NCBI GenBank assembly: GCA_902514485.1
Contig: CABXQY010000002.1
Location: forward strand, 1-51,404
Direction of reading: 5' to 3'
From: an uncultured Candidatus Poseidoniales archaeon
GTDB taxonomy: Archaea > Thermoplasmatota > Poseidoniia > Poseidoniales > Thalassarchaeaceae
Length of the DNA stretch: 51,404 bases
The translations under genes were made by a program, and so were the position numbers. Shown one piece after another: positions 5,899 to 27,925 of this stretch; within the stretch, counting starts at the first letter, position 1, and each line of letters opens with the position of its first letter. The notes under the pieces are model-generated. The model saw only the letters and a program-made list of their open reading frames with translations, made no database searches and was not told the DNA's origin.

Positions 5899-5916
5899 TG
5901 AGGAAAAATAGACGCA

Positions 5917-10896: not shown

Positions 10897-10967
10897 GGTA
10901 AAGGTTATTCCCCTACCTGATACAATATAAAATCAATTTTTTCTCATTTCTGAAAAATGGAAATACA

Positions 10968-11375
10968 CTAACCTAAATCATATTGTTCAGATGATTTTCT
11001 TCCAATCCATATACAAACTGCGATCAATAAAATCTGCACAGTTGCCCTAAATATGTGCCAATTGGTTCCAAACTTTGAACCCCCTATAGCAATATCATTA
11101 ACCCACATATTGAAATTTGCTGTGTACAAAACAACCAACATTAAAGCAATCCCATAACCAGAAATTTCACGAGTTTTAGGAATTATCAAACCAATCCCTA
11201 AGACTATCTCAAATACTCCACTAGCATATACCCAAAATGTAGGATAACCAATCAAATCAGGGACTATTGGTTCGAACCATGCCGGATCTTGAAAATGTAA
11301 AATTCCAATCCAAATTAATGGTAAGCCAAGAATTAATGACAATGTTGTCAATAAAATTTTAATCATAATAGTCAC
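10968..11375 (-). CDS. DoxX-like small integral membrane protein
   Basis: 135-aa ORF with four hydrophobic segments (LILGLPLIWIGILHF, FWVYASGVFEIVLGIGLII, GYGIALMLVVLYTANF, VQILLIAVCIWIG). The GTG start overlaps the upstream stop (GTGA); an alternative ATG lies at 11364-11366. The family call is tentative. Confidence 0.5.
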   Translation of the reverse strand: MTIMIKILLTTLSLILGLPLIWIGILHFQDPAWFEPIVPDLIGYPTFWVYASGVFEIVLGIGLIIPKTREISGYGIALMLVVLYTANFNMWVNDIAIGGSKFGTNWHIFRATVQILLIAVCIWIGRKSSEQYDLG

Positions 11376-13888
11376 TCAAAACGAATTGTCTCAATTGATT
11401 CGCAATGTGGGCAGGTCGTTCGAGCTATATCGACACCCTCGGGCATATCTACTTCGAACAACTTCTCACAGTTAGAACAAGAACTCCGGACTGTTCTGTT
11501 ACTTGTAACAGGCTCTGGTTCTGGTTCTGGCTCTGGCTCTGGTTCAAGTTCAGGTGCCTCGACAACTTCTGAGCCAGGAAGAGAAATACCTGCAAGTGGA
11601 TCTTCTGAAGGAGTCCATATTTCTTCTGAATTCGCTAAATCATCAAATACATGTTCAACATTTTCTATATCAACTGCATCATCTTCCAAGAAAGCAGAAA
11701 GCAACTCACTTGCTTGACTATTAGTAGGAGCGGAAGTCGGAGGCGGAGAAGAAGCCATTAGTTCCGCTAAATCTGGATCTAATTCGATTGTTGAAGAAAT
11801 CGTTGGTGTACCTGAAGGAGGAGGAGTAGGAAGTCCAGACATCCCCGAAGAGTAGCCTCCGAGGCCCGTCTGCATTCCAGGTTGTGAAAGAGGATTTACT
11901 GGATTTGATGAGCTGCCCCACATTGCTTTCTGTTCTTCAACAGAAGGAGGCGCTACATCTTTCGTAACCTCTTCTTCGGCCTGTTCGGCTAAAATCGCTG
12001 CTATTTTCCTATTCTCTAGTATTCTAAAAGTTACAAAACCAAGTATTGCAAGTATTACCGCTATAGCTACTATTATTGTAATGATTGATAACCAATCAAT
12101 GCCTTCTGAATTCCCAGTTGGCGACACTACAGTAACTAATATTTCTGCCTCTGTAGTGAGTCCTTCGTCATTCTCAATAGTACAGACTACCCAAAATACT
12201 CCCGCTTTAGGGAATACATGGTTGACCTGAGGGCCGACACCTTCATTGTCATTAGAAGTGATACCATCTCCGTCAGAATCTTTGTCTCTATCAAAGTCCC
12301 AAGTATAGATTAAATTGGTTGATTCAGAATCAGTTGCTGGAACTGAAAATGGGTAGGCTTGGTTAACTACGACTTGTAACTCCGACATAAATGTTGAATC
12401 GATACTAGGGGGAGTTGGATCGTATAGATTGATATTTGCAATATCATCTGTTATTAATCCTGAATTATCTGTAACTCGAAGAGTTATAGTATGCATTCCA
12501 GAAATATATGATGAGTCAAAAATATGGTTAAATGAGGTTGCTGATAAATCGGAGCCAGAATATGTTTCTAAAACCACACCATCGACCAACCATTCAACTG
12601 TTGCAACACCATAATTATCTGAAAATTGCCCACTGAGTACTATGTTTTCTCCATAACCACGAGTTATATCAGAAGTGATATCAATATCAGCAACTGGATT
12701 AGAAATATCTCTAACCTCTATGTCCTTGAAAACTGTTGAACTACGTGAATCTGTAGAAACAACAGTTAATTTGAGTGTGAGATTTGTTGGAGCATCCCAA
12801 GAAACATCTGTTGAGAATCCGCTAACATCGTTGAATCCATCTCCATCAATATCCCAATTCACACTATCTATTTGGTTTGATAGGTTTGGTGTTTCACTTG
12901 CGTTCAGTGTAATGACTTCTCCGACATCAATTAACGTTAAAGAATCAGAGTTTGAAAGTACTGCTTGGACTACTGGTGTCAAGGAAGAAACGACAGTTGT
13001 GGCAACGGCTGTAGTTCCTGCACCTCCGGCTCCTGCACGATTATCTACAATTATGTAAAGGGGAATCTCAGTGTATGGAGATATTGCAGACCAAACTGTA
13101 CTACCAGAACTTGTGACTGATAGTAAATCAGCTTGATTAATTCTTGAAGCGGCTACTGTTCCGTTCGCTGCTGCGGATTCATACGAATTCTTCTGTGCTT
13201 CTGTCATCAAAAATATATCTGGAGCACCTTCCATAGTTGTGACATCAATGGAAACTTGAGTTCCTTCATCTAAAGTAAATGGACCTGCTATTATTTCATA
13301 TCCATTATTATCAAGTCTAACTATTGTATCTGCAATTGAGAATTCAGGGCTTACAACCTGTTGAACATCCATGGCTACATTGGCTGTGCTACCTCCTTGG
13401 GCACCTTGACCACTATCTTGAGGATGGGCTAAATTATCTATCACCATGTACCAACGAGTAGATTGCCCCTCATCTGGAACTGTCCAGTGCCAAGAACCTT
13501 GACCACTAAATGATTCAAAGACTGAATCTTCTTCCCAAATTAGATCTGTTCGATAATTTTGTTCGTTTTGATAAGTAGTCCTAGCATTGGATGTGAAAAG
13601 TAGTATATCGATTTCTGAATCACTATCGATTTCAAATGAAAATGTCGTACCAGGAGCCAATACTTCGAGGAAATCTATAGTTACACAAGACTGATCGGAT
13701 ATCTCCCAACTTGCAGGCATCATACCTATATCCGCACTAGTACAACCGATAATTCCCTTGGAATCAGCAGATGCCAGAGGGCTAGCAATAGAAAGAATAA
13801 GGACAAGCAAAATGGCTGACGTGACTCTACGCATTACCTTAGCGTGAACTTTTCCTTTTTGAATCGTATTGTGGTTACGTTCGCCCAT
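11372..13888 (-). CDS. PKD-domain surface protein with TM anchor, (EP)6 tract and C-terminal zinc ribbon
   Basis: 838-aa ORF with a signal-like AILLVLILSIASPLASA. It has two PKD-like modules (NWDIDGDGFNDVSGF..LKLTVVSTD and YTWDFDRDKDSDGDG..HVFPKAGVFWVVCTIENDEG) and a TM (WLSIITIIVAIAVILAILGFVTF). The cytoplasmic tail is P/S/E-rich with EPEPEPEPEPEP and ends in CSNC-x18-CPHC. Confidence 0.8.
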   Translation of the reverse strand: MGERNHNTIQKGKVHAKVMRRVTSAILLVLILSIASPLASADSKGIIGCTSADIGMMPASWEISDQSCVTIDFLEVLAPGTTFSFEIDSDSEIDILLFTSNARTTYQNEQNYRTDLIWEEDSVFESFSGQGSWHWTVPDEGQSTRWYMVIDNLAHPQDSGQGAQGGSTANVAMDVQQVVSPEFSIADTIVRLDNNGYEIIAGPFTLDEGTQVSIDVTTMEGAPDIFLMTEAQKNSYESAAANGTVAASRINQADLLSVTSSGSTVWSAISPYTEIPLYIIVDNRAGAGGAGTTAVATTVVSSLTPVVQAVLSNSDSLTLIDVGEVITLNASETPNLSNQIDSVNWDIDGDGFNDVSGFSTDVSWDAPTNLTLKLTVVSTDSRSSTVFKDIEVRDISNPVADIDITSDITRGYGENIVLSGQFSDNYGVATVEWLVDGVVLETYSGSDLSATSFNHIFDSSYISGMHTITLRVTDNSGLITDDIANINLYDPTPPSIDSTFMSELQVVVNQAYPFSVPATDSESTNLIYTWDFDRDKDSDGDGITSNDNEGVGPQVNHVFPKAGVFWVVCTIENDEGLTTEAEILVTVVSPTGNSEGIDWLSIITIIVAIAVILAILGFVTFRILENRKIAAILAEQAEEEVTKDVAPPSVEEQKAMWGSSSNPVNPLSQPGMQTGLGGYSSGMSGLPTPPPSGTPTISSTIELDPDLAELMASSPPPTSAPTNSQASELLSAFLEDDAVDIENVEHVFDDLANSEEIWTPSEDPLAGISLPGSEVVEAPELEPEPEPEPEPEPVTSNRTVRSSCSNCEKLFEVDMPEGVDIARTTCPHCESIETIRFE

Positions 13889-14913: not shown

Positions 14914-15009
14914 CATTCATTGAGTCTGATTTGTATCATTAATTACCCATTCAAAAAATGATTCTAAACTAGGAAGAAGATTCGCACCAGAGTCTGTTAA
15001 CTAATACAC
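14914..15009 (-). pseudogene. Ghost copy of the 3' end of the FAS1-HxlR gene (last ~27 codons plus stop, with an in-frame TAG)
   Basis: An ungapped alignment of 14914-15009 to 16172-16267 gives 75 of 96 identical bases by hand count. The minus strand reads VY*LTDSGANLLPSLESFFEWVINDTNQTQ*. The intact gene's C-terminus reads VYKLTDSGASLLPSLETFFEWVLNDTNETE*. Confidence 0.7.
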
Positions 15010-15041
15010 TTCAGAGATTATACTCACAAGTATTTCCATTA

Positions 15042-15530
15042 TTATCTTTTGAGTATAAAGAATCCTATTATTATACCGAGAAATACCAATTCTAATGTTT
15101 CATGATTACTTGACCAATAGAGAAATTCTAACCAAGATTCATCGAATCCTATATTTTTCATTTCTTCATCAAAGTCTGAGATTCTAGAAATAAGATTAAT
15201 TATAGACAACAGAATAATAAAAATTCCAGAACCGACTCTTACAGTATTTGATTTAATATTACCAGTGAATTTTAAACCAGAGATAAGCAATATAGAAAAA
15301 ATTGTTGCTGTATACAATATCCAACTAATAATATCAGTGGTATCCCCTCCATATTCGAAATAATCAATAATATCTATATATTCTCCGAAAGCTAATATTG
15401 CAGTCGGAAGTAGTAGTAAGAGGCAAAAAATTCCAAAAATATACTCTAATGTATATTTCGAATCTTCAGATGATGTCAGCAATTTGTCATCATCCATGTT
15501 CATCGCAAAGGGTATTCGCCTTTCATACAT
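15042..15530 (-). CDS. Hypothetical multi-pass membrane protein
   Basis: 162-aa ORF with about four hydrophobic segments (IFGIFCLLLLLPTAILAF, ILYTATIFSILLISGL, GSGIFIILLSIINLI, LELVFLGIIIGFFIL). No family was recognised. Confidence 0.5.
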   Translation of the reverse strand: MYERRIPFAMNMDDDKLLTSSEDSKYTLEYIFGIFCLLLLLPTAILAFGEYIDIIDYFEYGGDTTDIISWILYTATIFSILLISGLKFTGNIKSNTVRVGSGIFIILLSIINLISRISDFDEEMKNIGFDESWLEFLYWSSNHETLELVFLGIIIGFFILKR

Positions 15531-16015
15531 ACGTCATATAAAATATCCATGAATTCAATTTGAATCATAGGGTCTTCAATGAGACAGTATCGGTTATACA
15601 AACACAAAATAATACAATAACCCTACAAGAACTCCAATATCTATAGTAACAAACAATATTTTCATTGGCAAAGGAGCAATTTTCCAAAAATGACCTAATC
15701 CTTTATTTTCTTCACTCATATTATGTCGAAATCAATAGAAGTATTAATTGTACCCCTGTTGAAAATCAAGGATAGCGTAATTAATGGAAATTACTGAGTT
15801 TTAGCTGTTTAACCTAATAATGGCGTAACACTCATCACTGTAATAGCGAAAGATGCGTAGAAGCCAATTAGTATTGTTAGTATGTGTCCTGCGTGCATTA
15901 TTATACGTCGTAATGATTCATTAATGAATGCCTGTTTACTTTTGTATTTTTGACTTAAATATACTTGTATCTTTTCGCACAATTTTGAAATTTAATTTTC
16001 TTAATTTGTGTTTTT

Positions 16016-16041
16016 TGGTCCGCGCTCCCGGACTTGAACCG
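16016..16041. repeat. att copy 1: 26-nt direct repeat identical to the 3' end of tRNA-Tyr (antisense)
   Basis: TGGTCCGCGCTCCCGGACTTGAACCG is identical to 19846-19871 and 27822-27847. Identity with copy 2 extends over 39 nt (16011-16049 = 19841-19879). Confidence 0.9.
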
Positions 16042-16171
16042 AAGTCCGGCAGGTAAGGAGGCATTTCTCTTACTGAGGGAGATATCTACACAGTATTTGG
16101 AAGATATTCGTAAAGGTAAAACTGGAACTGTAAAGCAGCTGCTGACTTTGCTTTCAGGGGTGAAACAATGA
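16016..16171 (+). pseudogene. Relic integrase C-terminal fragment, int(C)-like and AT-rich
   Basis: The frame entering the repeat as WSALPDLN continues RSPAGKEAFLLLREISTQYLEDIRKGKTGTVKQLLTLLSGVKQ to the TGA at 16169-16171. It has the same length as the tail at 19870-19998 and 23 of 43 residues are identical. No matching int(N) lies upstream of the next att copy. Confidence 0.7.
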
Positions 16172-16174
16172 CAT

Positions 16175-18979
16175 TTATTCAGTTTCATTTGTGTCATTGA
16201 GAACCCATTCAAAAAATGTCTCTAAACTAGGAAGGAGAGATGCACCGGAATCAGTCAATTTGTACACAACTGTCGGAGGTACAGTCTCAAAATCTGTTCT
16301 TTCTACTAGATTATGGTCCTCTAATTCACCCAGTCTTCTTGTTAGTGTGGTAGAAGAGGTATCAACTCTATTTTTTAATTCTGTAAATCGTATTGGATTT
16401 TCTTCTGAATGCAATGTATGAATAATTTGAACCATTTTTGATCTAGAAAGAAGTGTCAATAGTTCATCTGCTTCAACATCTTGTTTCATTATTATGGAAT
16501 CTAATCGTGACTTGGGGGATCTTATTGCAGCCGTACCGACTAGAACCAATACCATAGCGAACACTATTATCGCTCCAAAGATTGCACTGCTTTGACCTAA
16601 AATAACTGAAGGTCCACTGCCATCAACATTAGAGCTATCATCCTGTAAAGGTGTATCTTCAACTGGAGTTTCTATGGTTTTATCTACTGTTTCTTCCACA
16701 GGTTCTTCCACAGGTTCTTCCACAGGTTCTTCCACAGGTTCTTCCACAGGTTCTTCCACAGGTTCTTCCACAGGTTCTTCCACAGGTTCTTCCACTGGCT
16801 CCTCCACAGGTTCTTCCACTGGCTCCTCCACAGGTTCTTCCACTGGTTCTTCTACAGGTTCTTCTTCTGTTGGCATCAGTATTTTATCGATAATATAAAT
16901 CACACCATTTTCTACTCCTTGAGAATAAAGAATCTTTGCCTCATTAACGAAAATATTACCTTCACAATCATTTGTAATGGTTATCGGAAACGAATCCGTA
17001 GTTTCCATGTCGAACTCTGTAGGTGTGCATTCATCAGAGAATGATAATACCCAGTCAAATGAAATATGATTGAGAAGGATTTCAGACAATCCTTCGAGTT
17101 TCTGGAGACTATCATAATCGTCAAGATCTATTCCAGCTGCAGCAAATGCTTCATCTGTTGGAGCAAATATTGTCATCCCCATCTGAGGACTATTCTCTAC
17201 ATTAATATCGTCCATCAACATGGTCATTCCCAAAGCATCCATTAAATCTCCAAATTCTCCATCATTCTCTAGGTTGGATGGGATATCAAATCTAGGATTG
17301 AACCTTGGCTCATCATTATTCGGTGGCGTGAAATTAAAGCTTGAAGGAATTAGAACGCTATCAATGACTTGAATCATGCCGTTATCTGTAGCTGAAGAAA
17401 AAGAAGGCCAATCGGTAGTCTCGGAGAATCCATAAACTCGATTATCTGTATCAATGACATTAGCCTGATTAACTGTAACATTTCCTTGACAATCATTTGA
17501 AATTATGACGGTCTCTGTCCAAGAGCTGTAGTTAAATGGATCTGCATATTCTCCATTTTGCATTGGCGTCCAGTCTGTAGTGTAAGGCTGGCAATAAGGT
17601 TCGTATTCGCCACTCGAACTGTTGTAGGCCATTCCCATGTCCAATCCATATGGCCCTGCAAAAGTTACATGATAGAGCAAGACTTCTGTCAATACATCGA
17701 TCCCCTCTGGAGAATCAAAATCATCTAGATAAATGCCAGTGGCATCGAAAGCATCGTTGGTAGGAGCAAATACAGTATATCCCATCTGAGGAGTGTTTTC
17801 TGGACTAAGAACTTCTGTTAGATTAGTCATCTCTAAGGCTTGTAATAGCGTGCTAAAGTAGGGAGAATTTTGAAATGCCCACAAAACAGTATCGTGCTCA
17901 CTGATTCCATATTCATCTATCTCTAATTTACTCTGATCGTCATTTAACTCAAACCAATGTTCCCAGGAGTCTTCGGGGTATACAAAAGTATAGTCAAGGC
18001 AGTAATTTGCGTCCAAATCTGCTTCCAACCAGTCACCTCCTACTTCTGTAGCGTAGAATGCGTGCATTATGCAAATCTCTTCTGAGCCGCCTAGATAAGA
18101 CCATGAAGTGAGATCTTCATTTGTTCCAGCCGGAATGTATGATGTACCTTCTCCTTGGAAATATCCTAGAATGTTGCATCCCGAAGAATGAGCCATGCCT
18201 ATGTTATTTGCTGTTGAAACGGAAAAGCTAGCATCTTCTGCAGCACCTCCAAATCCATAATCACATAGCATTGATTGTACCGATATATCGAAAGCGGTTA
18301 CGTCTACAGATGTATCAATGGTCAGTACCATGGTTTCATTAGTTACATCACCAAAGCCGACGATCACTTCTGAGCTTGAATCCGATCCATCCACTACTTC
18401 TGAGTTCGCATATGGATTTTCTACCTCAGGTTCGCTTTCACCATCATCAAGTTCATACCATACATCATTCGGCCATTCAGTTTCATACCGAGTATAAGTC
18501 AGACAATCATTGGGATCAAAGTCTGCTTGTCGAGTTTCGAACTCCCCCTCAGTTAACATGACCGTATAGGACGCATTCCCGATGCATACCTCTGGGCTAT
18601 TAGATTGATAGTAGAAGGATGTGAGAGTATCATTACTACCTGAGGGGATCCATCTTTCTCCTTGCGCCCCGTAATAGTATCCTGAAGTAGAACATCCAGC
18701 ATAGAGGATGCTGACAAACAAATCATGTTCTTCAGAGAGTCCGCCCCATGATTGTACCCCACAATAAATAGACCCAGAATCCCAAACAAATGTTACGAAG
18801 TATGCATACACATCTACTGAGGTATCCATTGTTAGTACCATTGTATCATTAGTAACATCACCAAAACCAATAGTCACTTCTGAGTTTGAATTCGATTCAT
18901 CTACGTCAGCAGATACCTGGGATGCAGGAAGGGCAATCATCATTAAGCAAATTAATAGTACTCTCAATTGGGACATCAT
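16175..18979 (-). CDS. Type-I membrane protein: two N-terminal repeat modules + two FAS1 (fasciclin) domains + (EEPV)n linker + TM + cytoplasmic HxlR-type winged-helix DNA-binding domain
   Basis: 934-aa ORF with signal peptide LLICLMMIALPASQVSA. It has two paralogous modules (SEVTIGFGDVTNDTMVLTMDTSVDV and SEVIVGFGDVTNETMVLTIDTSVDV). FAS1 motifs occur twice (TVFAPTNDAFDATG..IQVIDSVLIP and TIFAPTDEAFAAAG..VIYIIDKILMP). After the TM (AIFGAIIVFAMVLVLVGTAAI), the last 115 aa carry an HxlR pattern: RFTELKNRV..SSTTLTRRLGELEDHNLVERTDFETVPPTVVYKLTDSGASL. Confidence 0.85.
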   Translation of the reverse strand: MMSQLRVLLICLMMIALPASQVSADVDESNSNSEVTIGFGDVTNDTMVLTMDTSVDVYAYFVTFVWDSGSIYCGVQSWGGLSEEHDLFVSILYAGCSTSGYYYGAQGERWIPSGSNDTLTSFYYQSNSPEVCIGNASYTVMLTEGEFETRQADFDPNDCLTYTRYETEWPNDVWYELDDGESEPEVENPYANSEVVDGSDSSSEVIVGFGDVTNETMVLTIDTSVDVTAFDISVQSMLCDYGFGGAAEDASFSVSTANNIGMAHSSGCNILGYFQGEGTSYIPAGTNEDLTSWSYLGGSEEICIMHAFYATEVGGDWLEADLDANYCLDYTFVYPEDSWEHWFELNDDQSKLEIDEYGISEHDTVLWAFQNSPYFSTLLQALEMTNLTEVLSPENTPQMGYTVFAPTNDAFDATGIYLDDFDSPEGIDVLTEVLLYHVTFAGPYGLDMGMAYNSSSGEYEPYCQPYTTDWTPMQNGEYADPFNYSSWTETVIISNDCQGNVTVNQANVIDTDNRVYGFSETTDWPSFSSATDNGMIQVIDSVLIPSSFNFTPPNNDEPRFNPRFDIPSNLENDGEFGDLMDALGMTMLMDDINVENSPQMGMTIFAPTDEAFAAAGIDLDDYDSLQKLEGLSEILLNHISFDWVLSFSDECTPTEFDMETTDSFPITITNDCEGNIFVNEAKILYSQGVENGVIYIIDKILMPTEEEPVEEPVEEPVEEPVEEPVEEPVEEPVEEPVEEPVEEPVEEPVEEPVEEPVEEPVEETVDKTIETPVEDTPLQDDSSNVDGSGPSVILGQSSAIFGAIIVFAMVLVLVGTAAIRSPKSRLDSIIMKQDVEADELLTLLSRSKMVQIIHTLHSEENPIRFTELKNRVDTSSTTLTRRLGELEDHNLVERTDFETVPPTVVYKLTDSGASLLPSLETFFEWVLNDTNETE
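16691..16870. repeat. 12-nt tandem repeat (about 15 units) encoding (EEPV)n within the FAS1-HxlR gene
   Basis: TTCTTCCACAGG is repeated head-to-tail, with a few CACTGGCTCC variants near the 3' side. On the coding (minus) strand it gives EEPVEEPVEEPV... Confidence 0.9.
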
Positions 18980-19292
18980 AACCTATCTCATCTACTTACC
19001 CCATATAAAGAACCGTTTTCATAGTAACAGACTCGTTACTGCCCTAGTAACATACCCGTAACCATTAAAATTTTATCAAAAAGTCATATTCTAGAGAAAT
19101 ATTTCAATTTCATGGAAATAATTTATCTCATAGTATGTCTTTAGTTTTCGGAAAAATTATCTGCTCGATTGAGCGCCCACAAGAGGTGTACTCAGCGATT
19201 TGGCCAATAGATATTGAGGTGTGAATGACATTTGCTCAATGATCGTTGATAAATAAACAAGTCTCTTTAAGCGAAAGTGTGAAGCCAAATAC

Positions 19293-19754
19293 ATGGATTT
19301 GTATGACTTTTCTTTCTTTTTCTCTACAATGTGGGTTGGACCTTTTTGGTTTGCGATGTTGTTATTCCCTGAACATGAAATGACTAAAAAAGCCCTCAAA
19401 GGTCCTTGGTTTTTCCTCGGACCACTAATTGTTTGGTGGCTAGTGACCATCGCTAATCCACAAGCAATGGTTGACTTAGCTAAAGATGCAGCAAATCCAA
19501 ATGCAATCCTTGACGGATTAGCTGCGATTATGGGCAGTCGACCCGGAGCTTCTGCAGCATGGGCTCACATGGTTGCTGGTGACATCTTCGTCACACGGTG
19601 GATCTGGCAGCGCTGCCTCAAGTATGACACTCCTCGTTGGATTGCTGCAACTTCGGTTTTCTTTGGCGTCATGCTGATGCCTATTGGATTAGCAATGTGT
19701 GCAATCCTAGTTAGAGATAAACAAGAAACCTCAGCGGCGCCAATTGAAGTCTAA
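19293..19754 (+). CDS. ABA4-like / DUF4281-like membrane protein
   Basis: 153-aa ORF with an ATG start and four hydrophobic segments. AAWAHMVAGDIFVTRWIW resembles the W-x-H-x(3)-x-D-x-F-V-x-RWI signature I associate with the ABA4-like family. This is a motif-level call. Confidence 0.55.
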   Translation: MDLYDFSFFFSTMWVGPFWFAMLLFPEHEMTKKALKGPWFFLGPLIVWWLVTIANPQAMVDLAKDAANPNAILDGLAAIMGSRPGASAAWAHMVAGDIFVTRWIWQRCLKYDTPRWIAATSVFFGVMLMPIGLAMCAILVRDKQETSAAPIEV

Positions 19755-19845
19755 GATTTCGATATAAATAGCCCCACCACACCTGTAACGCACTTGCCAG
19801 ATTTTATTGCAATAAAATCCTAAAGTAGAGATTATGATGATTTTT

Positions 19846-19871
19846 TGGTCCGCGCTCCCGGACTTGAACCG
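19846..19871. repeat. att copy 2 (attL of the 8-kb element)
   Basis: TGGTCCGCGCTCCCGGACTTGAACCG is identical to 27822-27847. Confidence 0.9.
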
Positions 19872-20001
19872 AAGTCCGGTACCAGATGAGGCGTTCGTGC
19901 TCCTGAGGGAGTTGTCACGACAGTGCCTGGAGGAAATCCAGAGGGGCAGAACTGCAACTACTAGGCAGCTGCTCTCTATGCTTGCGGAGGTGAGAGGATG
20001 A
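19846..20001 (+). other. int: int(C): detached 3' end of the element integrase gene
   Basis: It reads WSALPDLN|RSPVPDEAFVLLRELSRQCLEEIQRGRTATTRQLLSMLAEVRG, with the TGA at 19999-20001. The codon usage is GC-rich like int(N). Joining base 27821 to base 19846 gives one continuous ORF. Confidence 0.8.
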
Positions 20002-20054
20002 CCTCAAACTTGGCAAGGAATTTCTTGGCAAAACATACGATCTGTGAGATAATA

Positions 20055-20122
20055 TGGTCAACCATAGAAGGTAACCATGGTTATTTTTCATCTCATGGTT
20101 GTCAGGTTGCAAACAACCATGG
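20055..20122. promoter_or_regulatory. Cluster of four (C)AACCAT(GG) half-sites, a candidate operator or iteron
   Basis: The copies are CAACCAT at 20059-20065, the perfect palindrome TAACCATGGTTA at 20072-20083, and the inverted pair CATGGTTG (20094-20101) / CAACCATG (20114-20121) with a 12-nt spacer. The cluster lies between the int(C) stop and the RBS (GAGGTGA, 20133-20139) and ATG of the next ORF. Confidence 0.4.
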
Positions 20123-20143
20123 AATAATTTTCGAGGTGATTGT

Positions 20144-20896
20144 ATGATACGCTTCAATCCGGATACTGAAAGGAAGTTGAAAGAAGATTTGGCAAATGTT
20201 GGCAAAGCAAACCAGGGTTACAACATCTATGCTACCGTCAAAGGTTCGGCCAATCATCGAAGGATAGGAACCTTGGATTCGCAAAGAACGGCGATAACCT
20301 TCGATGGTACGAACAACCTTGCACCCATCATCAAGAAAGCGGAGTTGGAAGAAGGTGCTGTTGTTGGGGATGTTGCACTGGTCCCAATCCCGGTGGAGAC
20401 TATCCAATCCGCAGCAGGAAGGCTGAGCGAGACCAGGCGTGGCAAGGCAAGGAGTAACCTACTATCATCCATCAAGTCCCTAATCCAAAGAGGCGTGAAG
20501 ACGAATCCGACCAAGGACCCACTCAGGGTGATTGAGGAGAAGGACAGGGAGATCGATCATCTGAGGAGGATCATCAACGCCAACAACGGGCTGTATGCAG
20601 ACCAAATCGCGAGGGGGATGATGATTCCAAGCGTGGATGACTACCCATTCGATCCGAAGAAGCTCGTTCGCCTCGCCGATGGGTTCGATGGGGTGGCAGT
20701 TGAGATGGAGAGAAACAAGCTGAGGATTTACTTCGTAGAGGGAAACTATGCAGGTGAGTCAGGCATTCCCTCCATGACGGGCAGGCAGAGGGAGATGCGC
20801 AGGGCAATCAACCGTGGATGGGTGGAGGTCAGGCTCTGCCATCTGATATTGCATTCTGATGGTAGTCATGAATGGGAAATCACGGAGGAGCGATAA
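20144..20896 (+). CDS. Hypothetical protein (element-borne, GC-rich)
   Basis: The ATG at 20144 is preceded by GAGGTGA 4 nt upstream. It encodes 250 aa (MIRFNPDTERKLKEDL...). The composition is GC-rich like the integrase, and no motif was recognised. The ORF-track start at 20099 lacks an RBS. Confidence 0.6.
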   Translation: MIRFNPDTERKLKEDLANVGKANQGYNIYATVKGSANHRRIGTLDSQRTAITFDGTNNLAPIIKKAELEEGAVVGDVALVPIPVETIQSAAGRLSETRRGKARSNLLSSIKSLIQRGVKTNPTKDPLRVIEEKDREIDHLRRIINANNGLYADQIARGMMIPSVDDYPFDPKKLVRLADGFDGVAVEMERNKLRIYFVEGNYAGESGIPSMTGRQREMRRAINRGWVEVRLCHLILHSDGSHEWEITEER

Positions 20897-20940
20897 TTTG
20901 GTTAATTTGATAGCCATCAGGCGTTTAGAATTTGAATAAC

Positions 20941-22935
20941 ATGGATGGGGATAAAGTTGATTCCTATGAAAAAATCCCAATGGGATATTGGAAAAATCCC
21001 GACAACCATCTACTATGGTTTGAAGATTTTAGACGTCATTATGAATTAACCACATTCGAGAGTTTATACACTATTAATCAGAAGATGATTCGAGATTTTA
21101 ATGGAATCACATTAGTAAAAGAATATTATAAATCAATAATAAATTTGGTGAAATCGCTATATCCTGAATATGAATGGAAATCCTACAAATTCCCAAGACG
21201 GGCCAATGGTTATTGGGAGATTGAACGTCATCGTATAGAATGGTTTGAAGACTTTAGAAAGCACTATAATTTGGGATCATACAACAGCCTCTATGATATT
21301 AATTCTAAAATGATTGATGATTATTATGGTAAGACATTGAGAAATAATTACTACAAATCAATATTTATCATGGTACAATCACTTTGTCCTGAATTCGAAT
21401 GGAAATTTTACAAATTTCGTTATCTCAAAGGGCACTGGGGGGAGATAGAAAATCAAAAGTTATGGTTTGAGGACCTCCGTGATTTTTACGGTTTAACAAC
21501 AGTTGAGGATATTTATTCCCTAAATTTGAGGATGATTACTGATTTTTATGGGATCACATTAGTTAAGGAATATTATGGATCAATCCTGAATATGGTTGAA
21601 TCAATCTGTCCTGAATACGAATGGAAATTTTACAAATTTAGAGGTTCGAAGGGGTACTGGAGCGATCTTGAAAACCAAAGAATATGGTTTGAAGATTTAA
21701 GGGAGAACTACAATCTAACAACATCTGAGAGTCTTTACCAGATTAATAGTAAAATGATAAATGAATTCTATGGTGGTAATATTTGGAATTTCTACTCTAA
21801 AATACCTGAATTAGTTATGGCTCTATGCCCTAATCATGATTGGAAATTCTACAGATTTAGAGGTTCGCAGGGACACTGGAGTGATATTGAAAACCAGAAA
21901 TTATGGTTTAATGATCTAAGAGAACACTATGGGTTTGATTCAAACGAGGACTTGTACGATCTTACTGTGTCCAAAATTTCAGATTTCTATGGGATTACTT
22001 GTGTTGTTGCCCTCTATGACGGATCCCCGAGTGAATTAGTGCGAGCTTTGATCCCTGAATACGATTGGAAAATCTACAAATTTTCGAATACACCTCAGGG
22101 GTACTGGGACGATCGGAAAAACCTTCAATCATGGTTTGAGGACATGAGGAGGCATTATGGGTTTAACAAAAATGAGGACCTGTATAACATAAACCTGAAG
22201 ATGATTTTGGATTTCCATGGTAGGACTCCAATTTCAAAGTTTAACGATTCAAAAATAAATCTCATTAGACATCTAATCCCAGAATTTGATTGGAAGGAAT
22301 ACAAATTTGTTCAAACGAGGAAGAATTATTGGGATGATATCGAGAACCAGAAATCATGGTTCAGAGACTTCAGAGAACACTATGGATTGGATACATACGA
22401 GAGCCTTTACGATGTCAGTTCAAAGATGATAAGCGACTACTATGGAAGTGGGTTACTGACCAGGACAAAAACAAATTACGGAGGAAGCCCGTCTTTATTC
22501 GTCCCAACTATGTGTCCAGAGTATGACTGGGACCTTTCTAAATTCGCCAGTAACAGAAAAACGCAGAAATCCCTATTCAAAATTCTAAAGCAGAAGTTTC
22601 CAGATGCGATATGGGAATACAGGACCGAGGTTCGTTGGGATTTTAGGAACAAGATAGGGTACGATATTTTTGTTCCCTCAATGAATCTGGCCTTTGAGGG
22701 ACAGGGCCATCAACACTACATTCCAATAGAGATGTGGGGAGGTAGTGATGCTTTAACAAAGCAAAAACAAAGGGATGAGCAAAAGTCAGATTTGGCTCAG
22801 GAACTGGGGATAAGATTGGTTATCGTTCCTTTCTGTGATCTGGATCCTGAATTACCCAAATGGCAATCCAGCTGGGAGTCATTAGTTGAAATTTGCAAAT
22901 TACAGGGAATAAATCTGAGCTTGAATGCTCTGTGA
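20941..22935 (+). CDS. Seven tandem ~75-aa repeats fused to a C-terminal Vsr/DUF559-like (PD-(D/E)xK-type) nuclease domain
   Basis: The ORF-track start at 20932 is TTG; the first ATG is at 20941. The repeats span 20980-22560, with consensus GYWxDxENQKxWFEDLRxHYGLxTxESLYxINxKMIxDFYGxTL..YY.S...LV.SLCPEYEWKFYKF. The C-terminal 124 aa read SLFKILKQKFPD..GYDIFVPSMNLAFEGQGHQHY..QRDEQKSDLAQELGIRLVIVPF. This matches the D..(V/F)E.(D/Q)G..H...D..R...L...G..V.RF layout of Vsr/DUF559-type endonucleases. Confidence 0.75.
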   Translation: MDGDKVDSYEKIPMGYWKNPDNHLLWFEDFRRHYELTTFESLYTINQKMIRDFNGITLVKEYYKSIINLVKSLYPEYEWKSYKFPRRANGYWEIERHRIEWFEDFRKHYNLGSYNSLYDINSKMIDDYYGKTLRNNYYKSIFIMVQSLCPEFEWKFYKFRYLKGHWGEIENQKLWFEDLRDFYGLTTVEDIYSLNLRMITDFYGITLVKEYYGSILNMVESICPEYEWKFYKFRGSKGYWSDLENQRIWFEDLRENYNLTTSESLYQINSKMINEFYGGNIWNFYSKIPELVMALCPNHDWKFYRFRGSQGHWSDIENQKLWFNDLREHYGFDSNEDLYDLTVSKISDFYGITCVVALYDGSPSELVRALIPEYDWKIYKFSNTPQGYWDDRKNLQSWFEDMRRHYGFNKNEDLYNINLKMILDFHGRTPISKFNDSKINLIRHLIPEFDWKEYKFVQTRKNYWDDIENQKSWFRDFREHYGLDTYESLYDVSSKMISDYYGSGLLTRTKTNYGGSPSLFVPTMCPEYDWDLSKFASNRKTQKSLFKILKQKFPDAIWEYRTEVRWDFRNKIGYDIFVPSMNLAFEGQGHQHYIPIEMWGGSDALTKQKQRDEQKSDLAQELGIRLVIVPFCDLDPELPKWQSSWESLVEICKLQGINLSLNAL

Positions 22936-23104
22936 TTAGATTGTGTCCCAGAACACCGGGCTCCACTCAAGCTCAGCCGAGGTCAAACCCATGATTCCAC
23001 ATTTGCAGCACCTCTAACTCTGAAGGCAGCTCCCGTTGCACAGCCGTTGAAGGAATTACCGATACCCCCTACGCCAATGAGTTCAAAGAATGATTTACCT
23101 TATT

Positions 23105-25156
23105 TTAGTACTTCATCAACTTCTTTAGATTCCTAGAATAACGCCTAACATCAAACATGGGTAATGAATTCCTTAACCATGAAGTAAATTCAGATGGGAC
23201 TGGAATAATGATTTTTTCACCTCTTCTTTTGGGGCCTATACTTTCTGGGATTAGATCCATCTGTCTGTTTACTTCATATCTATCTTCGTTATTTGTAAAG
23301 GATAAGTACAGTTCTTTCTGTGGAGTGACTCGCCAATTAACATCACCGTTGTTTATCATAGATAGCCAATCAAGACCATTTCCATCGACGACTTTTTCGA
23401 GGGGTTGATTAGGAAAGAAATCAGGTATTTCGATACCGGCAATCTCGTACAGTTCCGTCATAACTAATCGACCTATGTTCATACAATCAGTATGGTCATA
23501 TTTATCGTCAATTCCATTGTTAAGCAATTCTAAATATTTCTTTGAAAAATATAAAAATATCGGGTTTTCTTCACTCATTATTTTAGAAACATGTTTGATA
23601 TTAGCTGTATTATCTTCGAATCTAGCATCCATAACGACTTCTTTCATTCTACCTTTCAGTTGTCCTTGTGGTATTCTTTTATTCGAGGTTACAATTAGTT
23701 GACTATGATTTTTTCCTGATTCCCACCAATTATCCCAATAGGAACGTACAATTTGATCCATGTATCTCTTACCCCATTTCGAATCACTTATATCATCATA
23801 AATTATTGGGAAAAGAGAACTCCAGGTTAGTAAATTCTTAACTTTTGTAGCAGAGAAATCATCATCATCATATGCTGCAACTTTGTTGTTGCTTCCTGTC
23901 AATAGTCTACTACAATATTGTAATAGATATGTTTTCCCATTTTTTGTGTTACCATAAATAGCTAGAGGTTTTGGTCCACGCTGATATTCCCAACCTAGGA
24001 TTCTTTTGCCTTGTTTCATGTATGCGTGATGGAAAGGAGATGTCAAGAAATACAACATCACTTCGTATATACTCATCTTAGCAAAACGAGGATTCTTACA
24101 ACTAGCTCTATCTATAGTCTCGACATATGAGTGAATTCCATTGATTCCTTTTTGGATTTCAGCAACATCATAGTTAGATGCTGTTCTGTTAATTGTCTCA
24201 CTACCGACCCTAAGTGATACAAAGTCATCATTCACGGTCATTAATGGGAATGTGCTAACTCTAGTATCAAGAAATGGACGTGTTGTAGCCCTAATTTTTC
24301 TACCCTCTCTTTGGACACCTGCTGGTGCTAAAATTCTTACAACTTCTTCTAAAACTGCTTCATTGGCCTCTGTTGTCAATTCGGTCATGATGATATCAGG
24401 ATCTGTGGAATCATTCAGTGCTCTTTCTTGGAACTCGTGAATGATAGCATGTACTTTAGTTACATCTGCTGATGATGATGAACCAGTGTAAGATACCCAG
24501 CGCTCAACAACTTCAATATCTGGAGCGTCATCTTTGTTTAGTAGGTCTACCAATTCGTCTAAATATTCCTCAGAATTTGAATGATACCAGTAATAGGTCT
24601 CACATAATTCCAGATATTCATCAGAATTTTTATATTCTCCTTGGATATTACGCACTCGTACTTGATTAGATTGTTTTCCAGATATACCTGAACCTCTTGA
24701 AGTCAGATTAGCTGTACCAAAGATATCTGAAAACTCGTTATCTTTCTCTGCTAATATCCACTTTTCATGGAAGGTTCGATTATTTTTTGGTACTCTAACA
24801 GTTAAACGGCCTTCTTCTATTAGTTTGGCAAGTCTAAGGAAAACCTCGGGTTCTGTGCTAGATCGATTCTTTGTAACAACTGAATCTCCAACAATAATTT
24901 CTGCTTTTTGAATGCCATATAAATCAAATAAATCAACAATGAAGTCTACTCTTTGGACATACATTACCATTCTAATTTCATTAAATCCTTCGATATGAGT
25001 CTGCAATGGTCGCTGCGGAGTTACTCTGAATATCTTTGATTCGAGAATCTCAAACTCAGGTTTTTTTGGTTTAATATCAGGGCTGAGATCACCCCAAAGT
25101 TTTCTCTCGTTTGTTGTACTGGTTTCTTCCTCAATTTTTTCTAATTTATTTTCCAT
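23105..25156 (-). CDS. PLD-family (single HKD) nuclease domain fused to a D5/P4-like superfamily-3 helicase; putative element replication protein
   Basis: 683-aa ORF. The HKD motif is FHEKWILAEKD..FGTANLTSRG (aa 129-155). Walker A is AIYGNTKNGKTYLL (aa 399-412) and Walker B is LFPIIYDD (aa 448-455). SF3 motif C is QLIVTSNKRIP (aa 486-496). Confidence 0.75.
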   Translation of the reverse strand: MENKLEKIEEETSTTNERKLWGDLSPDIKPKKPEFEILESKIFRVTPQRPLQTHIEGFNEIRMVMYVQRVDFIVDLFDLYGIQKAEIIVGDSVVTKNRSSTEPEVFLRLAKLIEEGRLTVRVPKNNRTFHEKWILAEKDNEFSDIFGTANLTSRGSGISGKQSNQVRVRNIQGEYKNSDEYLELCETYYWYHSNSEEYLDELVDLLNKDDAPDIEVVERWVSYTGSSSSADVTKVHAIIHEFQERALNDSTDPDIIMTELTTEANEAVLEEVVRILAPAGVQREGRKIRATTRPFLDTRVSTFPLMTVNDDFVSLRVGSETINRTASNYDVAEIQKGINGIHSYVETIDRASCKNPRFAKMSIYEVMLYFLTSPFHHAYMKQGKRILGWEYQRGPKPLAIYGNTKNGKTYLLQYCSRLLTGSNNKVAAYDDDDFSATKVKNLLTWSSLFPIIYDDISDSKWGKRYMDQIVRSYWDNWWESGKNHSQLIVTSNKRIPQGQLKGRMKEVVMDARFEDNTANIKHVSKIMSEENPIFLYFSKKYLELLNNGIDDKYDHTDCMNIGRLVMTELYEIAGIEIPDFFPNQPLEKVVDGNGLDWLSMINNGDVNWRVTPQKELYLSFTNNEDRYEVNRQMDLIPESIGPKRRGEKIIIPVPSEFTSWLRNSLPMFDVRRYSRNLKKLMKY

Positions 25157-25494
25157 GTTCTAATCACCTTGGCTTCTTGCGTCGAATCCCGAGGTAGCCA
25201 ACATCGGGCTTTGTTGGCCGCATATGTCGGGATATAAAGATTAAGTAAAGCAAGAAATTACTAATCCCTTTAGGGGATTATACTCAAAACGTGTTTCAGA
25301 ATATTCTTGTTTCTTCCTTAATTACACCTAATCGGAAGTGGTACCCATGTGGCTACTCCTAGAAATTATGTCATCTGATACTATATTCAGAAGGAACTAA
25401 TGAATGGGAGATAGTTGAGAATTCCAAAAATCCCATATAAACGTACTTCTCAAAGTACAAATTTAGCAGATATTAAAGTTATAATTTTAACACT

Positions 25495-26202
25495 TTAATT
25501 TTGTATCCTTTTGGTGCTTGGGGAGCCTATACCTTTAACTCCATCCGTTCTCAAGATTTCTCTTAGCTTTTCGGCTTCTTCTTGTTCCAATTGCCTTTGC
25601 TCAGTTTTAGCCTTCTTATCGGCTTCTTCTTCCTTCTGTTTCCGTTGGATAATAGTATCTACTCCTTGTTCGGAAATCCCATCAATGATCATTTTAGTTG
25701 CTTCAACATTATTCAGATATTTCTCGACTAAGCGTTTAGCCTCCTCAATTGTTGTATCTTTTTTGCCCACAGACTCCATCAGAGTGTAATGTTTCTTATT
25801 TTCCAAAATAAACTCACAATCCTCGATTGAAAGTTTATCTTTGTGATTTGGCTCTAAGAGAAATCGTTTAATTGCATCGATGGTTGATTTGTTACTAACG
25901 AGTTTCTTGAAAAATCCATTTGCATATGCTAAGTCGTCAAAGTTTGTTTTTACCGGATTTGCTAGTTGATGTACTTCCTCGGCTATTTTTTGATTTTTAC
26001 AGAAATCTCTGAATGGCTTCTCCTTAGCGGCCTTATCTTTGGCTCTCTTTTCTTCTTCTTTTCTCCGATAAATATGTGCATGCACATGACAATAACCACC
26101 GTCATTTTTAGTTGCAGGAAGTTTGCAAGGTCTTTTGGCTTCGAAATGCTGAACAATGTGCTTGCAGGCGGATTTTGGATCTCTTCGTCGCCGCGGAGTC
26201 AC
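25495..26202 (-). CDS. Basic protein with an N-terminal Cys/His cluster and K/E-rich coiled-coil segments (putative DNA-binding)
   Basis: 235-aa ORF with a GTG start. The N-terminus reads RRRRDPKSACKHIVQHFEAKRPCKLPATKNDGGYCHVHAH (C-x12-C-x11-C-x-H-x-H). Charged stretches follow: KEEEKRAKDKAAKEK and QRKQKEEEADKKAKTEQRQLEQEEAEKLRE. Confidence 0.55.
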   Translation of the reverse strand: MTPRRRRDPKSACKHIVQHFEAKRPCKLPATKNDGGYCHVHAHIYRRKEEEKRAKDKAAKEKPFRDFCKNQKIAEEVHQLANPVKTNFDDLAYANGFFKKLVSNKSTIDAIKRFLLEPNHKDKLSIEDCEFILENKKHYTLMESVGKKDTTIEEAKRLVEKYLNNVEATKMIIDGISEQGVDTIIQRKQKEEEADKKAKTEQRQLEQEEAEKLREILRTDGVKGIGSPSTKRIQN

Positions 26203-26576
26203 AAAACTCTACGCTAGGATATGCGTTAGAAAGTTATCTCCTTTGAATATCTGTACTTACTCATTTCAATTACCTCGGAGTAATTCGGTAGTCATATCTC
26301 TCAGCATTACCTTAAATTCATCTGATCTCTCTTTCTCTCCTTGCTCAAATAAATAATATTCAGATCAATGGAATGGTATTTTTCGATATAAAAAATGATA
26401 ATTAATGAGTGGATATTAGTTGATAATTGGATTTTTTAGTAGCACTACACATTGTAGAAGAAGTAATTGAGAATCCCAACGGCATTGTCGTTTGAAGCAA
26501 TAGGCATTCATGTTCAAACTCTGCATCATAGTACTGACAATAACCTTTCATACCTTCTCTTCGCTTCCAATATTCC

Positions 26577-27914: not shown

Positions 27915-27925
27915 GCTAAGCGCGG
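27822..27925 (-). tRNA. tRNA-Tyr (anticodon GUA) with a 27-nt intron at the canonical 37/38 position and an encoded CCA
   Basis: The minus strand folds by hand. The acceptor is CCGCGCT/AGCGCGG and the D arm is GCTC-AGTTGGCTA-GAGC. The anticodon stem is CCTGA/TCAGG and the loop is CTGTAG|intron|A, with anticodon GTA at 27889-27891. The intron is 27861-27887. The variable loop is GGGTC, the T arm is CCCGG-TTCAAGT-CCGGG, the discriminator is A, and CCA follows. The C1-G72 pair is the archaeal/eukaryal tRNA-Tyr identity pair. Confidence 0.85.

Follow-up and report, generated by a model that had tools for sequence, protein, structure and literature searches.

A candidate membrane-bound one-component regulator of Poseidoniales that joins an adhesion-type ectodomain to an HxlR-type winged helix-turn-helix

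Introduction

What is a DNA-binding domain of a soluble regulator family doing at the cytoplasmic end of what otherwise looks like a secreted adhesion protein? The question is raised by a minus-strand gene at positions 16175 to 18979 of contig CABXQY010000002.1, a 51,404-nucleotide stretch of DNA from an uncultured Candidatus Poseidoniales archaeon that was analyzed as a whole and is called the window below. HxlR-type regulators are as a rule small (~100 to 130 amino acids [aa]) and soluble, whereas the product of this gene is 934 aa long and has a signal peptide and one transmembrane (TM) helix. An original prediction, made from the letters of the sequence, had read the gene as extracellular fasciclin (FAS1) domains tethered through a single TM helix to a cytoplasmic HxlR-type winged helix-turn-helix (wHTH), and had proposed that it encodes a membrane-bound one-component regulator. 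Here we report that this tethered-HxlR fusion is a conserved, previously undescribed family and that the earlier reading is supported as a candidate. We think it somewhat probable that the protein is a type-I TM transcription regulator whose HxlR tail would act from the membrane, binding the gene's own promoter in dimeric or tetrameric form, with the ectodomain setting the oligomeric state.

Domain layout and topology

The open reading frame (ORF) runs without interruption through all 934 codons, as the original prediction had it. Pfam matched Fasciclin (PF02469) in two stretches (E value of 1.8e-28; 99.7 bits against a gathering score of 22), and both of the motif pairs by which the two FAS1 domains had been recognized were located. 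Upstream of them lie two modules that are 41% identical across 169 aa (E value of 1.8e-27) and carry four cysteines apiece, so that the two paralogous cysteine-containing modules of the original prediction are also confirmed. AlphaFold2 (AF2) modeled module 1 as an all-β structure (predicted local distance difference test [pLDDT] score of 82.7), for which Foldseek found a weak similarity to cohesin modules (best matches with an E value of 4e-4, template-modeling scores of 0.39 to 0.48, and root-mean-square deviations of 5 to 8 Å). The N-terminal module had no match in Pfam or NCBIfam, and a search for its homologues returned 14 fragments of the tethered-HxlR family and nothing else. The acidic stalk, for which about 15 copies of EEPV had been estimated, contains 14 by our count; the underlying 12-nt tandem repeat spans 16620 to 16888, and the TM helix lies 3′ of the repeat, contiguous with the HxlR domain.

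A Kyte-Doolittle plot showed only two hydrophobic segments, at aa 1 to 24 and at aa ~799 to 819, the second followed immediately by RSPKSR. Every cysteine beyond the signal peptide lies N-terminal to the TM helix, as do 9 of the 11 N-x-S/T sequons, while the 115-aa tail that follows it contains no cysteine at all. The net charge of the ectodomain is about −150. The combination of a signal peptide with a single TM helix, a K/R cluster right after that helix, and sequence rich in cysteines, sequons, and FAS1 domains before it indicates a type-I protein with the wHTH on the cytoplasmic face of the membrane, in line with the topology first proposed. With both a TM segment and a domain for DNA binding predicted on one polypeptide, the protein is a predicted transmembrane transcriptional regulator (TTR), a class defined by just these two features that includes archaeal examples (Demey et al. 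2023, PMC10269533).

The HxlR-type tail

The assignment of the tail to HxlR held in profile, sequence, and fold comparisons alike. In Pfam, HxlR (PF01638) matched aa 852 to 929 with an E value of 8.5e-13 and 48.4 bits (gathering score of 20.8); the MarR, HVO_A0261_N, and PadR wHTH families matched the same stretch more weakly, and NCBIfam gave only distant MarR/RrpA-type matches. The closest solved structure by sequence was HxlR of Bacillus subtilis (7bze; E value of 1.5e-10), followed by YodB, QsrR, YtcD, and HypR. An AlphaFold model of aa 786 to 934 reached a pLDDT of ~90 over the wHTH, and its top Foldseek match was YodB (5hs7; template-modeling score of 0.83 and root-mean-square deviation of 1.5 Å), with HxlR with and without DNA (7bzd and 7bzg), the QsrR-DNA complex (4hqe), and CdTR (7kd3) among the further top matches. 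As modeled, the tail has an HxlR-type winged-helix fold with a long C-terminal helix. Hidden Markov model (HMM), sequence, and predicted fold thus place the tail in the DNA-binding family of the soluble HxlR/DUF24 proteins (B. subtilis HxlR, YodB, and HypR; Staphylococcus aureus QsrR). Pairwise ratios of nonsynonymous to synonymous substitution (dN/dS) for the tail were 0.05 to 0.15 in ten pairs, which indicates purifying selection.

What the tail lacks is the conserved N-terminal sensing cysteine of YodB, QsrR, HypR, and HxlR. The soluble proteins are cytoplasmic, 100 to 130 aa long, and use this cysteine to sense electrophiles or aldehydes; the tethered protein has no tail cysteine, and its input is presumed to be extracellular. 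A HMMER search across 1.84 billion representatives returned 2,829 HxlR relatives. Among the best 150 of these, the only long single-pass proteins with a C-terminal HxlR domain belonged to the tethered family, the others being soluble proteins of ~110 to 150 aa, tandem HxlR-HxlR proteins of ~210 to 330 aa, and one type with a sensor domain and two HxlR domains.

Distribution and variation of the family

To see how far the fusion extends, we counted clusters carrying both PF02469 and PF01638 in a search space of 5.8 billion proteins and found ~100, each of 620 to 940 aa, from independent metagenome-assembled genomes (MAGs), single-amplified genomes (SAGs), and metagenomes. A scan of species-representative genomes gave 37 loci, in both families of the Poseidoniales (Poseidoniaceae and Thalassarchaeaceae). 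The source names of the homologues were Poseidoniaceae, Thalassarchaeaceae, Poseidoniales, or Euryarchaeota MAGs; no member was found outside the order apart from three contigs in bacterial MAGs, which are probably misbinned.

All complete members carry a signal peptide and a single TM helix, and ~22 residues past that helix they show the motif LL[SG][RK]SKM, with a tail of 89 to 99 residues and a constant spacing between the TM helix and the HxlR domain. The constants of the family are this TM-HxlR unit and the N-terminal module, whose alignment columns are nearly invariant; the module is present in one or two copies per homologue, and module 2 is absent in many. The middle of the protein is variable and consists of one to three FAS1 domains or, in P0098 to P0108, of thrombospondin type-3 (TSP3) repeats instead. 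Because FAS1 is exchangeable with TSP3 rather than constant, the sensor may not be FAS1.

Could the fusion be an artifact, in which misassembly or a frameshift within the EEPV repeat has joined a surface-protein gene to a small HxlR gene? Several database entries are partial, and the assembly of one SAG, AG-313-L18 (L044; uncultured Candidatus Poseidoniales), stops inside the EEPV repeat. Its contigs are 96 to 97% identical to the window, so that the two belong to the same species, and because of the break this genome alone cannot confirm the join between stalk and TM helix. Against an artifact stand the recurrence of the layout from signal peptide to TM-HxlR in the ~100 clusters, which come from ENA, JGI, NCBI, and Logan assemblies; the constant TM-HxlR spacing; the location of the TM helix, which lies downstream of the repeat; and independently assembled contigs that each span the entire gene (L001, L003, L007, L009 [a 451-kb SAG contig], L011, and others). 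We found neither a chimera nor a frameshift and regard the chance of an artifact as negligible.

Some members differ in detail. P0012, P0019, P0021, P0052, and others have in the stalk a conserved cysteine motif like an LDL-receptor class A repeat (W/ECMDGT.I....DDGKFDCPDGTDE). It sits between FAS1 and the TM helix in Poseidoniaceae-type members, at the place where the window protein has the EEPV repeat. On MAG contig L036 (88 to 764), the HxlR tail is split by an insertion of ~330 nt between tail aa 59 and 60, and in L010 the tail-bearing ORF is only 314 aa long; these two could be decaying alleles or MAG assembly errors.

The soluble paralogue and the origin of the tail

In nine loci (L001, L002, L003, L007, L009, L014, L022, L031, and L045), a gene for a soluble HxlR protein of 117 to 125 aa lies directly upstream of the tethered gene on the same strand. 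In each of these loci whose flank is covered, a gene for a Zn-dependent alcohol dehydrogenase (ADH) is divergent from the soluble HxlR gene. We counted this ADH/HxlR pair in no fewer than 23 Poseidoniales loci, and many of these have no tethered gene close by. The tail is 50 to 57% identical to the soluble paralogue. In a family-wise comparison, the recognition helix S-TT--RRLGELE was common to the two forms, and many other positions differed consistently between them. At the position where the soluble form has a conserved N-terminal cysteine (SMCESA), the tethered form has its juxtamembrane linker. An N-terminal cysteine is a hallmark of the electrophile-sensing HxlR/YodB/QsrR proteins.

Judged by sequence, the immediate ancestor of the tail is the Poseidoniales soluble HxlR with its divergent Zn-dependent ADH gene, an arrangement that is classic for the HxlR family. 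In the simplest history, a soluble cysteine-based sensor would have been duplicated and fused to a surface protein, its cysteine input being swapped for a membrane tether.

The two genes do not always remain together. The ADH and soluble HxlR genes have been deleted from the window, where only the last 12 soluble codons are left upstream of the tethered gene (Table 1), and the sister SAG L044 retains 32 codons. In several other genomes, the soluble and tethered genes are unlinked (L019 versus L012/L015; L024 versus L021).

A box array upstream of the gene

We aligned the 200 nt upstream of 17 family genes and found a single conserved block amid little other conservation. It comprises, in this order, three or four GTWAC boxes at a spacing of 11 to 12 bp, AAAC(G/T)G, and TTTA(T/A)AT ~30 nt before the ATG. 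The last two elements are probably the core promoter of a leaderless mRNA, as their arrangement matches archaeal promoter architecture, and the boxes form a candidate operator.

We then counted as a chain any run of at least three GTWAC boxes at a spacing of 10 to 13 bp. The window contains one chain, and none appeared in 300 Markov simulations. In 448 kb of related loci there were 14 chains; 13 of them sit 82 to 86 nt upstream of the start of a family gene, and the 14th abuts a contig end. Every family gene has the array in front of it, the TSP3 variants and the unlinked copies included. A three-box pattern scan of metagenomes gave at least 120 matches; among those listed were 22 family loci, and in all 22 of these the pattern was accompanied by box 1, the AAAC...TATA element, and an N-terminal module starting ~143 nt downstream. 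The other 98 of those listed were from environments unrelated to these and did not show the complete array, so that the metagenome scan is uninformative about further targets.

A related element marks the soluble gene. The intergenic region of ~90 nt between ADH and hxlR (for example L007, 3157 to 3245; L001, L003, L007, L009, and L013 to L035) has two TATA-like elements, and between them stands TTGTAAC-N4-TTGTAAC, which hardly varies. This sequence is exact in 22 loci and is equivalent to two GTAAC boxes 11 bp apart; in the related loci it occurs in the ADH/hxlR intergenic region only, once per locus. It is a probable operator of the cysteine-based electrophile or aldehyde sensor. The half-site shared by the two promoters and the recognition helix shared by the two proteins together suggest that HxlR-type domains read GTWAC boxes. 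Furthermore, the array has stayed intact both after deletion of the soluble gene (the window and L044) and in loci without linkage to it (L004 to L006, L010, L011, L024, and L046), which would fit binding by the tethered tail itself.

Possible modes of action

Taken together, these observations suggest the following model. Outside the cell, the protein would expose one or two cohesin-like β-sandwich modules, FAS1 domains, and an acidic, glycoprotein-like stalk, while the TM helix and a linker of ~20 residues would hold a complete HxlR domain against the cytoplasmic face of the membrane. The tail would sit, as a dimer or a dimer of dimers, on the three or four helically spaced GTWAC boxes just upstream of the gene's own transcription factor B recognition element and TATA box. 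The system is probably autoregulatory, and the autoregulation may be shared with the soluble paralogue; the position of the boxes upstream of the TATA box slightly favors activation, that is, positive feedback on the adhesin, over repression. The input would be the state of the ectodomain, whether adhesion to particles, polymers, or other cells or a ligand- or Ca-dependent clustering, and it would alter oligomerization of the tail at the membrane in the manner of ToxR, CadC, and TcpP. In HxlR/MarR-type dimers, the terminal helices form the dimerization core, opposite the DNA-reading lobes, so that a short N-terminal tether would be geometrically compatible with DNA binding below the membrane. 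Surface contact may change gene expression through the tethered protein, and we hold it possible, if rather doubtful, that contact sensing is achieved within this single protein, as an adhesin that engages particles, algal surfaces, or sister cells and passes the signal to transcription, through HxlR clustering on the four-box operator or through a Notch-like release.

Several points weigh against this model. We infer DNA binding by the tail solely from homology and a phylogenetic footprint, and the soluble paralogue or some unrelated factor could occupy the array instead. Neither the window nor the 448 kb of related loci yielded a second target for it. Nor does the window contain TTGTAAC-N4-TTGTAAC, even with up to three mismatches allowed; as the soluble-type operator thus has no counterpart that can be placed at the tethered gene, the GTAAC half-site is the sole link between the two promoters. 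The linker, at ~20 aa, is short compared with ~50 aa in CadC, and DNA would need to approach the membrane very closely. At the TM helix, the window protein shows a strong positive-inside bias but Poseidoniaceae-type members only a modest one, so that for the family the topology is argued mainly from the signal peptide and the single TM helix. Finally, there is a natural tail-less variant, P0006 in L005, found in three samples, whose gene runs into an integrase fragment directly behind the juxtamembrane region and is truncated there (L005, 9373 to 9546). The ectodomain and TM helix can therefore persist without HxlR, and the ectodomain is valuable alone.

Three other modes of action were weighed against binding at the membrane. 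The protein might be an inactive tethered precursor, whose ectodomain is engaged or shed, after which an intramembrane or juxtamembrane cleavage, as in Notch, frees an HxlR domain of ~13 kDa to act on the GTWAC boxes. Such release had already been offered in the original prediction, and it would suit the type-I topology, the large sheddable ectodomain, and the long low-complexity stalk; the freed domain would be nearly the size of the soluble paralogue, and the very short linker, which makes binding at the membrane sterically demanding, would cease to matter. The protease for a type-I substrate would be a rhomboid or presenilin-type enzyme, but no intramembrane protease is encoded in the window, no conserved protease gene adjoins the family genes in the loci with listed called genes, and no recognizable cleavage motif was found. 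Release agrees with all of our observations, and the sequence does not separate it from a tethered mode, but we consider it unlikely.

The location of the soluble paralogue directly upstream on the same strand in at least nine loci raises the idea of a decoy or partner switch, in which the tail would heterodimerize with soluble HxlR and sequester or release it, much as an anti-sigma factor does, so that the state of the surface modulates the ADH/hxlR regulon. The identity between the two proteins extends to the dimer-interface helices of HxlR-family structures. However, the window and the same-species SAG have lost the adjacent soluble HxlR and ADH genes and yet keep the tethered gene, its tail, and the array intact; the two genes are unlinked in the several other genomes named above; the paralogues differ consistently at many positions; and the tail's recognition helix shows no less conservation than that of the soluble protein, although a mere decoy could do without it. 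A decoy role therefore seems improbable to us. We give a similarly small chance to a surface adhesin whose wHTH tail has been recruited for a nontranscriptional role, such as anchoring the nucleoid or a cytoplasmic partner at the site of adhesion. Such a protein would account for the adhesion-type modules of the ectodomain (FAS1, TSP3, and cohesin-like) and for the tail-less variant, and Poseidoniales have been assumed to rely on adhesion (PMC6461757), but it would leave unexplained why the tail retains the full HxlR fold and the DNA-reading residues of the soluble paralogue under strong purifying selection and why a dedicated operator-like array accompanies the gene. Regulation from the membrane, through binding of the tail to its own promoter, is thus the reading that we prefer.

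Relation to known systems

In layout there is a parallel with ToxR, CadC, and TcpP, in which a single polypeptide likewise links a domain outside the cytoplasm, through one TM helix, to a DNA-binding domain inside it. The ToxR-like proteins are bacterial and of type II (N terminus inside, no signal peptide), with an N-terminal OmpR-type wHTH (Trans_reg_C) and a linker of ~50 aa; the tethered protein is archaeal and predicted to be of type I, with a cleavable signal peptide, a C-terminal HxlR wHTH, a linker of ~20 aa, and an adhesion-type ectodomain. Pfam found no Trans_reg_C match in it. It is best described as a member of the HxlR family, by sequence and fold, that departs from the small, soluble, cysteine-sensing form typical of that family and may work like ToxR without being of the ToxR type. 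Notch, SREBP, and ATF6 are eukaryotic and nonhomologous, and the analogy with them extends only to the layout of ectodomain, single TM helix, and cytoplasmic transcription factor. Unlike the tethered protein, the FAS1 and TSP3 surface proteins of bacteria and archaea have a sorting signal or no anchor and no cytoplasmic DNA-binding domain; the more distant FAS1 matches in our searches were bacterial proteins with a Por/T9SS C-terminal sorting domain (PF18962).

Among archaeal regulators, ArnR has an N-terminal helix-turn-helix, a HAMP-like region, two C-terminal TM helices, and almost no extracellular domain, and we know of no homology between it and the tethered protein beyond the generic helix-turn-helix. 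ArnR and ArnR1 of Sulfolobus acidocaldarius are membrane-anchored one-component regulators that control surface structures (PMC6396743). In the TTR census (PMC10269533), 294 of the 50,302 TTRs are of the HxlR family, those inspected as examples being proteins of ~140 aa, and neither Fasciclin nor Poseidoniales appears. Our literature search returned no paper on fasciclin together with HxlR, on Poseidoniales or Marine Group II with fasciclin, or on Poseidoniales with HxlR; both halves of the protein had already been named by automatic annotation (IMG and NCBI). The adhesion traits named by Rinke et al. are thrombospondin and flotillin genes only, and no chemotaxis genes have been found in Marine Group II (PMC6461757).

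Marine Group II (Poseidoniales) is uncultured and among the most abundant archaea of the surface ocean, and how its members sense particles or phytoplankton is a gap that this family may help to fill. The family offers a concrete candidate for a signaling device, an exchangeable adhesion ectodomain joined to an HxlR tail with a predicted operator. On the history proposed above, it would be a cytoplasmic cysteine-based electrophile sensor rewired to a surface receptor, the wHTH having been duplicated and the sensing N terminus turned into a membrane tether. It would also extend the TTR class to type-I signal-peptide proteins with a C-terminal DNA-binding domain and to the archaeal HxlR family. 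If the contact-sensing reading is true, no adhesion receptor fused to a transcription factor would have been described in archaea before this one, and the protein could let the most abundant archaea of the surface ocean switch between free-living and attached life.

Feature coordinates and genomic surroundings

The features of the gene, its promoter, and the nearby integration remnants are collected in Table 1.

Table 1. Features of the tethered-HxlR gene and its flanks, in window coordinates
Feature	Position	Strand	Basis
Complete tethered-HxlR gene	16175..18979	-	Uninterrupted ORF; Pfam Fasciclin (two stretches) and HxlR
Signal peptide, aa 1-24 (MMSQLRVLLICLMMIALPASQVSA, cleavage before D; ends SQVSA, then DVDE)	18908..18979	-	Hydrophobic segment; kept in full-length homologues
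N-terminal module 1, aa 25-195; predicted four-Cys β-sandwich, the constant ectodomain part of the family	18395..18907	-	AF2; family alignment
N-terminal module 2, aa 196-~360; paralogue of module 1	17900..18394	-	Module 1 match at 41% identity
FAS1 domain a, aa ~362-545; TVFAPTNDAF ... VIDSVLIP	17345..17896	-	Pfam Fasciclin; landmark motifs
FAS1 domain b, aa ~565-703; TIFAPTDEAF ... IIDKILMP	16871..17287	-	Best Pfam Fasciclin stretch (aa 576-703)
Acidic stalk, with (EEPV)14 at 16685-16864	16586..16870	-	12-nt tandem repeat; copy number varies among homologues
Predicted single TM helix, aa 799-819	16523..16585	-	Hydropathy peak of 2.69; AF2 helix; constant distance to HxlR domain in complete homologues
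Predicted cytoplasmic juxtamembrane linker, aa 820-851 (RSPKSR...), continuing into helix α1 of the wHTH	16427..16522	-	K/R cluster right after TM helix
HxlR-type wHTH, aa 852-929 (Pfam stretch)	16193..16426	-	PF01638 HMM; sequence; fold; dN/dS
Recognition helix SSTTLTRRL	16331-16357	-	Within HxlR domain
Predicted core promoter, AAACGG + TTTATAT, TATA box at -30 from ATG	19003..19018	-	Conserved columns in upstream alignment
Candidate operator, four GTWAC boxes (GGTTAC-N5-TGTTAC-N6-AGTAAC-N5-TGTTAC), -84..-45 from ATG	19024..19063	-	Conservation; uniqueness
Remnant of soluble HxlR 3′ end, last 12 codons (..WALNRADNFSEN, then stop)	19141..19179	-	Aligns with 3′ ends of the soluble genes of L007 and L009
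Att core A (16015-16041, equal to tRNA 3′ end) and integrase C-terminal fragment of 43 codons, directly adjoining the tethered gene's stop codon	16011..16173	+	Repeats; in-frame continuation of integrase ORF
Att core B (19845-19871) and integrase C-terminal fragment (43-codon part at 19872-20002); left end of 8-kb element	19845..20002	+	Repeats; frame continuation

The original prediction had placed the gene inside an accessory segment bounded by attachment (att) sites. The gene does lie between two tRNA-derived att cores, but at a position that is syntenic in relatives, and only the neighboring 8-kb segment has been recently integrated. An intron-containing tRNA of 101 nt lies at 27825 to 27925 on the minus strand (Rfam, 56 bits; ARAGORN missed it), and its 3′ 27 nt are repeated identically in cores A and B. 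An integrase ORF (26577 to 27914), which holds the N-terminal and catalytic part, crosses the att core into the tRNA in antisense. When it is joined to the sequence after either copy of the core, the frame is kept for 43 similar codons, which makes this an SSV-type integrase split by integration. The segment from 19845 to 27847 is a complete integrated element of 8 kb with GC-rich patches (48 to 52%) at both ends, and its cargo includes a 667-aa protein of ~75-aa repeats (20932 to 22935) and ORFs of 683, 265, and 235 aa without a Pfam match. The same-species SAG AG-313-L18 lacks this element; there the tRNA is followed directly by core B and the ABA4-like gene.

Between cores A and B lie the tethered gene, the ABA4-like gene, and an integrase C-terminal fragment. 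We considered whether this interval is itself a simple integrated element with the tethered gene as cargo; the expected N-terminal part of the integrase is missing between the two cores, which speaks against such a model. In relatives (L009, L005, and L006), the order is FtsZ, tRNA, (ADH and soluble HxlR), tethered gene, integrase C-terminal fragment, and core; the tethered gene occupies this position linked to FtsZ and the tRNA in L005, L006, L009, and L044. In Poseidoniaceae-type loci, the triad of ADH, HxlR, and tethered genes lies elsewhere, without the tRNA core. The tRNA appears to be a recurrent integration hot spot, and, as the gene orders read, the tethered gene is a widespread gene of the lineage in a recombination-prone island beside that hot spot and is not demonstrably cargo of an element.

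The junction of a core with an integrase C-terminal fragment recurs at L005 9373 to 9546, at L009 7421 to 7518, and in L008. The same tRNA adjoins FtsZ in L005 and L006, the latter with a second copy of the core 3 kb off. At a permissive threshold, Rfam gave one chance-level sR2 match in the interval from 15900 to 20100 and no other noncoding RNA there.

More widely, the neighbors in the window are archaeal housekeeping genes (ribosomal protein L15e, FtsZ, HisRS, PGK, KsgA, Pus10, and an Rpb4-like protein). From 1360 to 13888, on the minus strand, there is a run of very large secreted or surface proteins, including a subtilase of the S8 type that is 1,512 aa long and has CARDB/NEW3 domains, a protein of 1,472 aa without a Pfam match, and a PKD/Big_7 protein of 838 aa with a zinc-ribbon-like match at its C terminus.

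A remnant of another tethered-type HxlR gene lies at 14920 to 15009 (minus strand), 40 nt from the L15e start codon. It consists of the last 30 codons, the stop among them (..LTDSGANLLPSLESFFEWVINDTNQTQ, then stop), and is 80% identical to the C terminus of the window gene. A 137-aa database protein, P0121, has a C-terminal end identical to this remnant, and in SAG AH-273-K03 an equivalent HxlR remnant lies 8 kb away from the gene. The repeats at 14914 to 15009 and 16172 to 16267 form part of a mosaic with core A and the integrase C-terminal fragment. Between the remnant and core A is a 1-kb segment of low GC content (29.7%; 15010 to 16010), within which a 162-aa multipass membrane ORF (15042 to 15530) has no Pfam match. 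On the other side, the ABA4-like membrane protein gene (PF14108; 19293 to 19754, plus strand) is divergent from the tethered gene and takes up the site that the ADH and soluble HxlR genes fill in relatives. L003 has an ABA4-like gene as well, 3 kb upstream of the triad.

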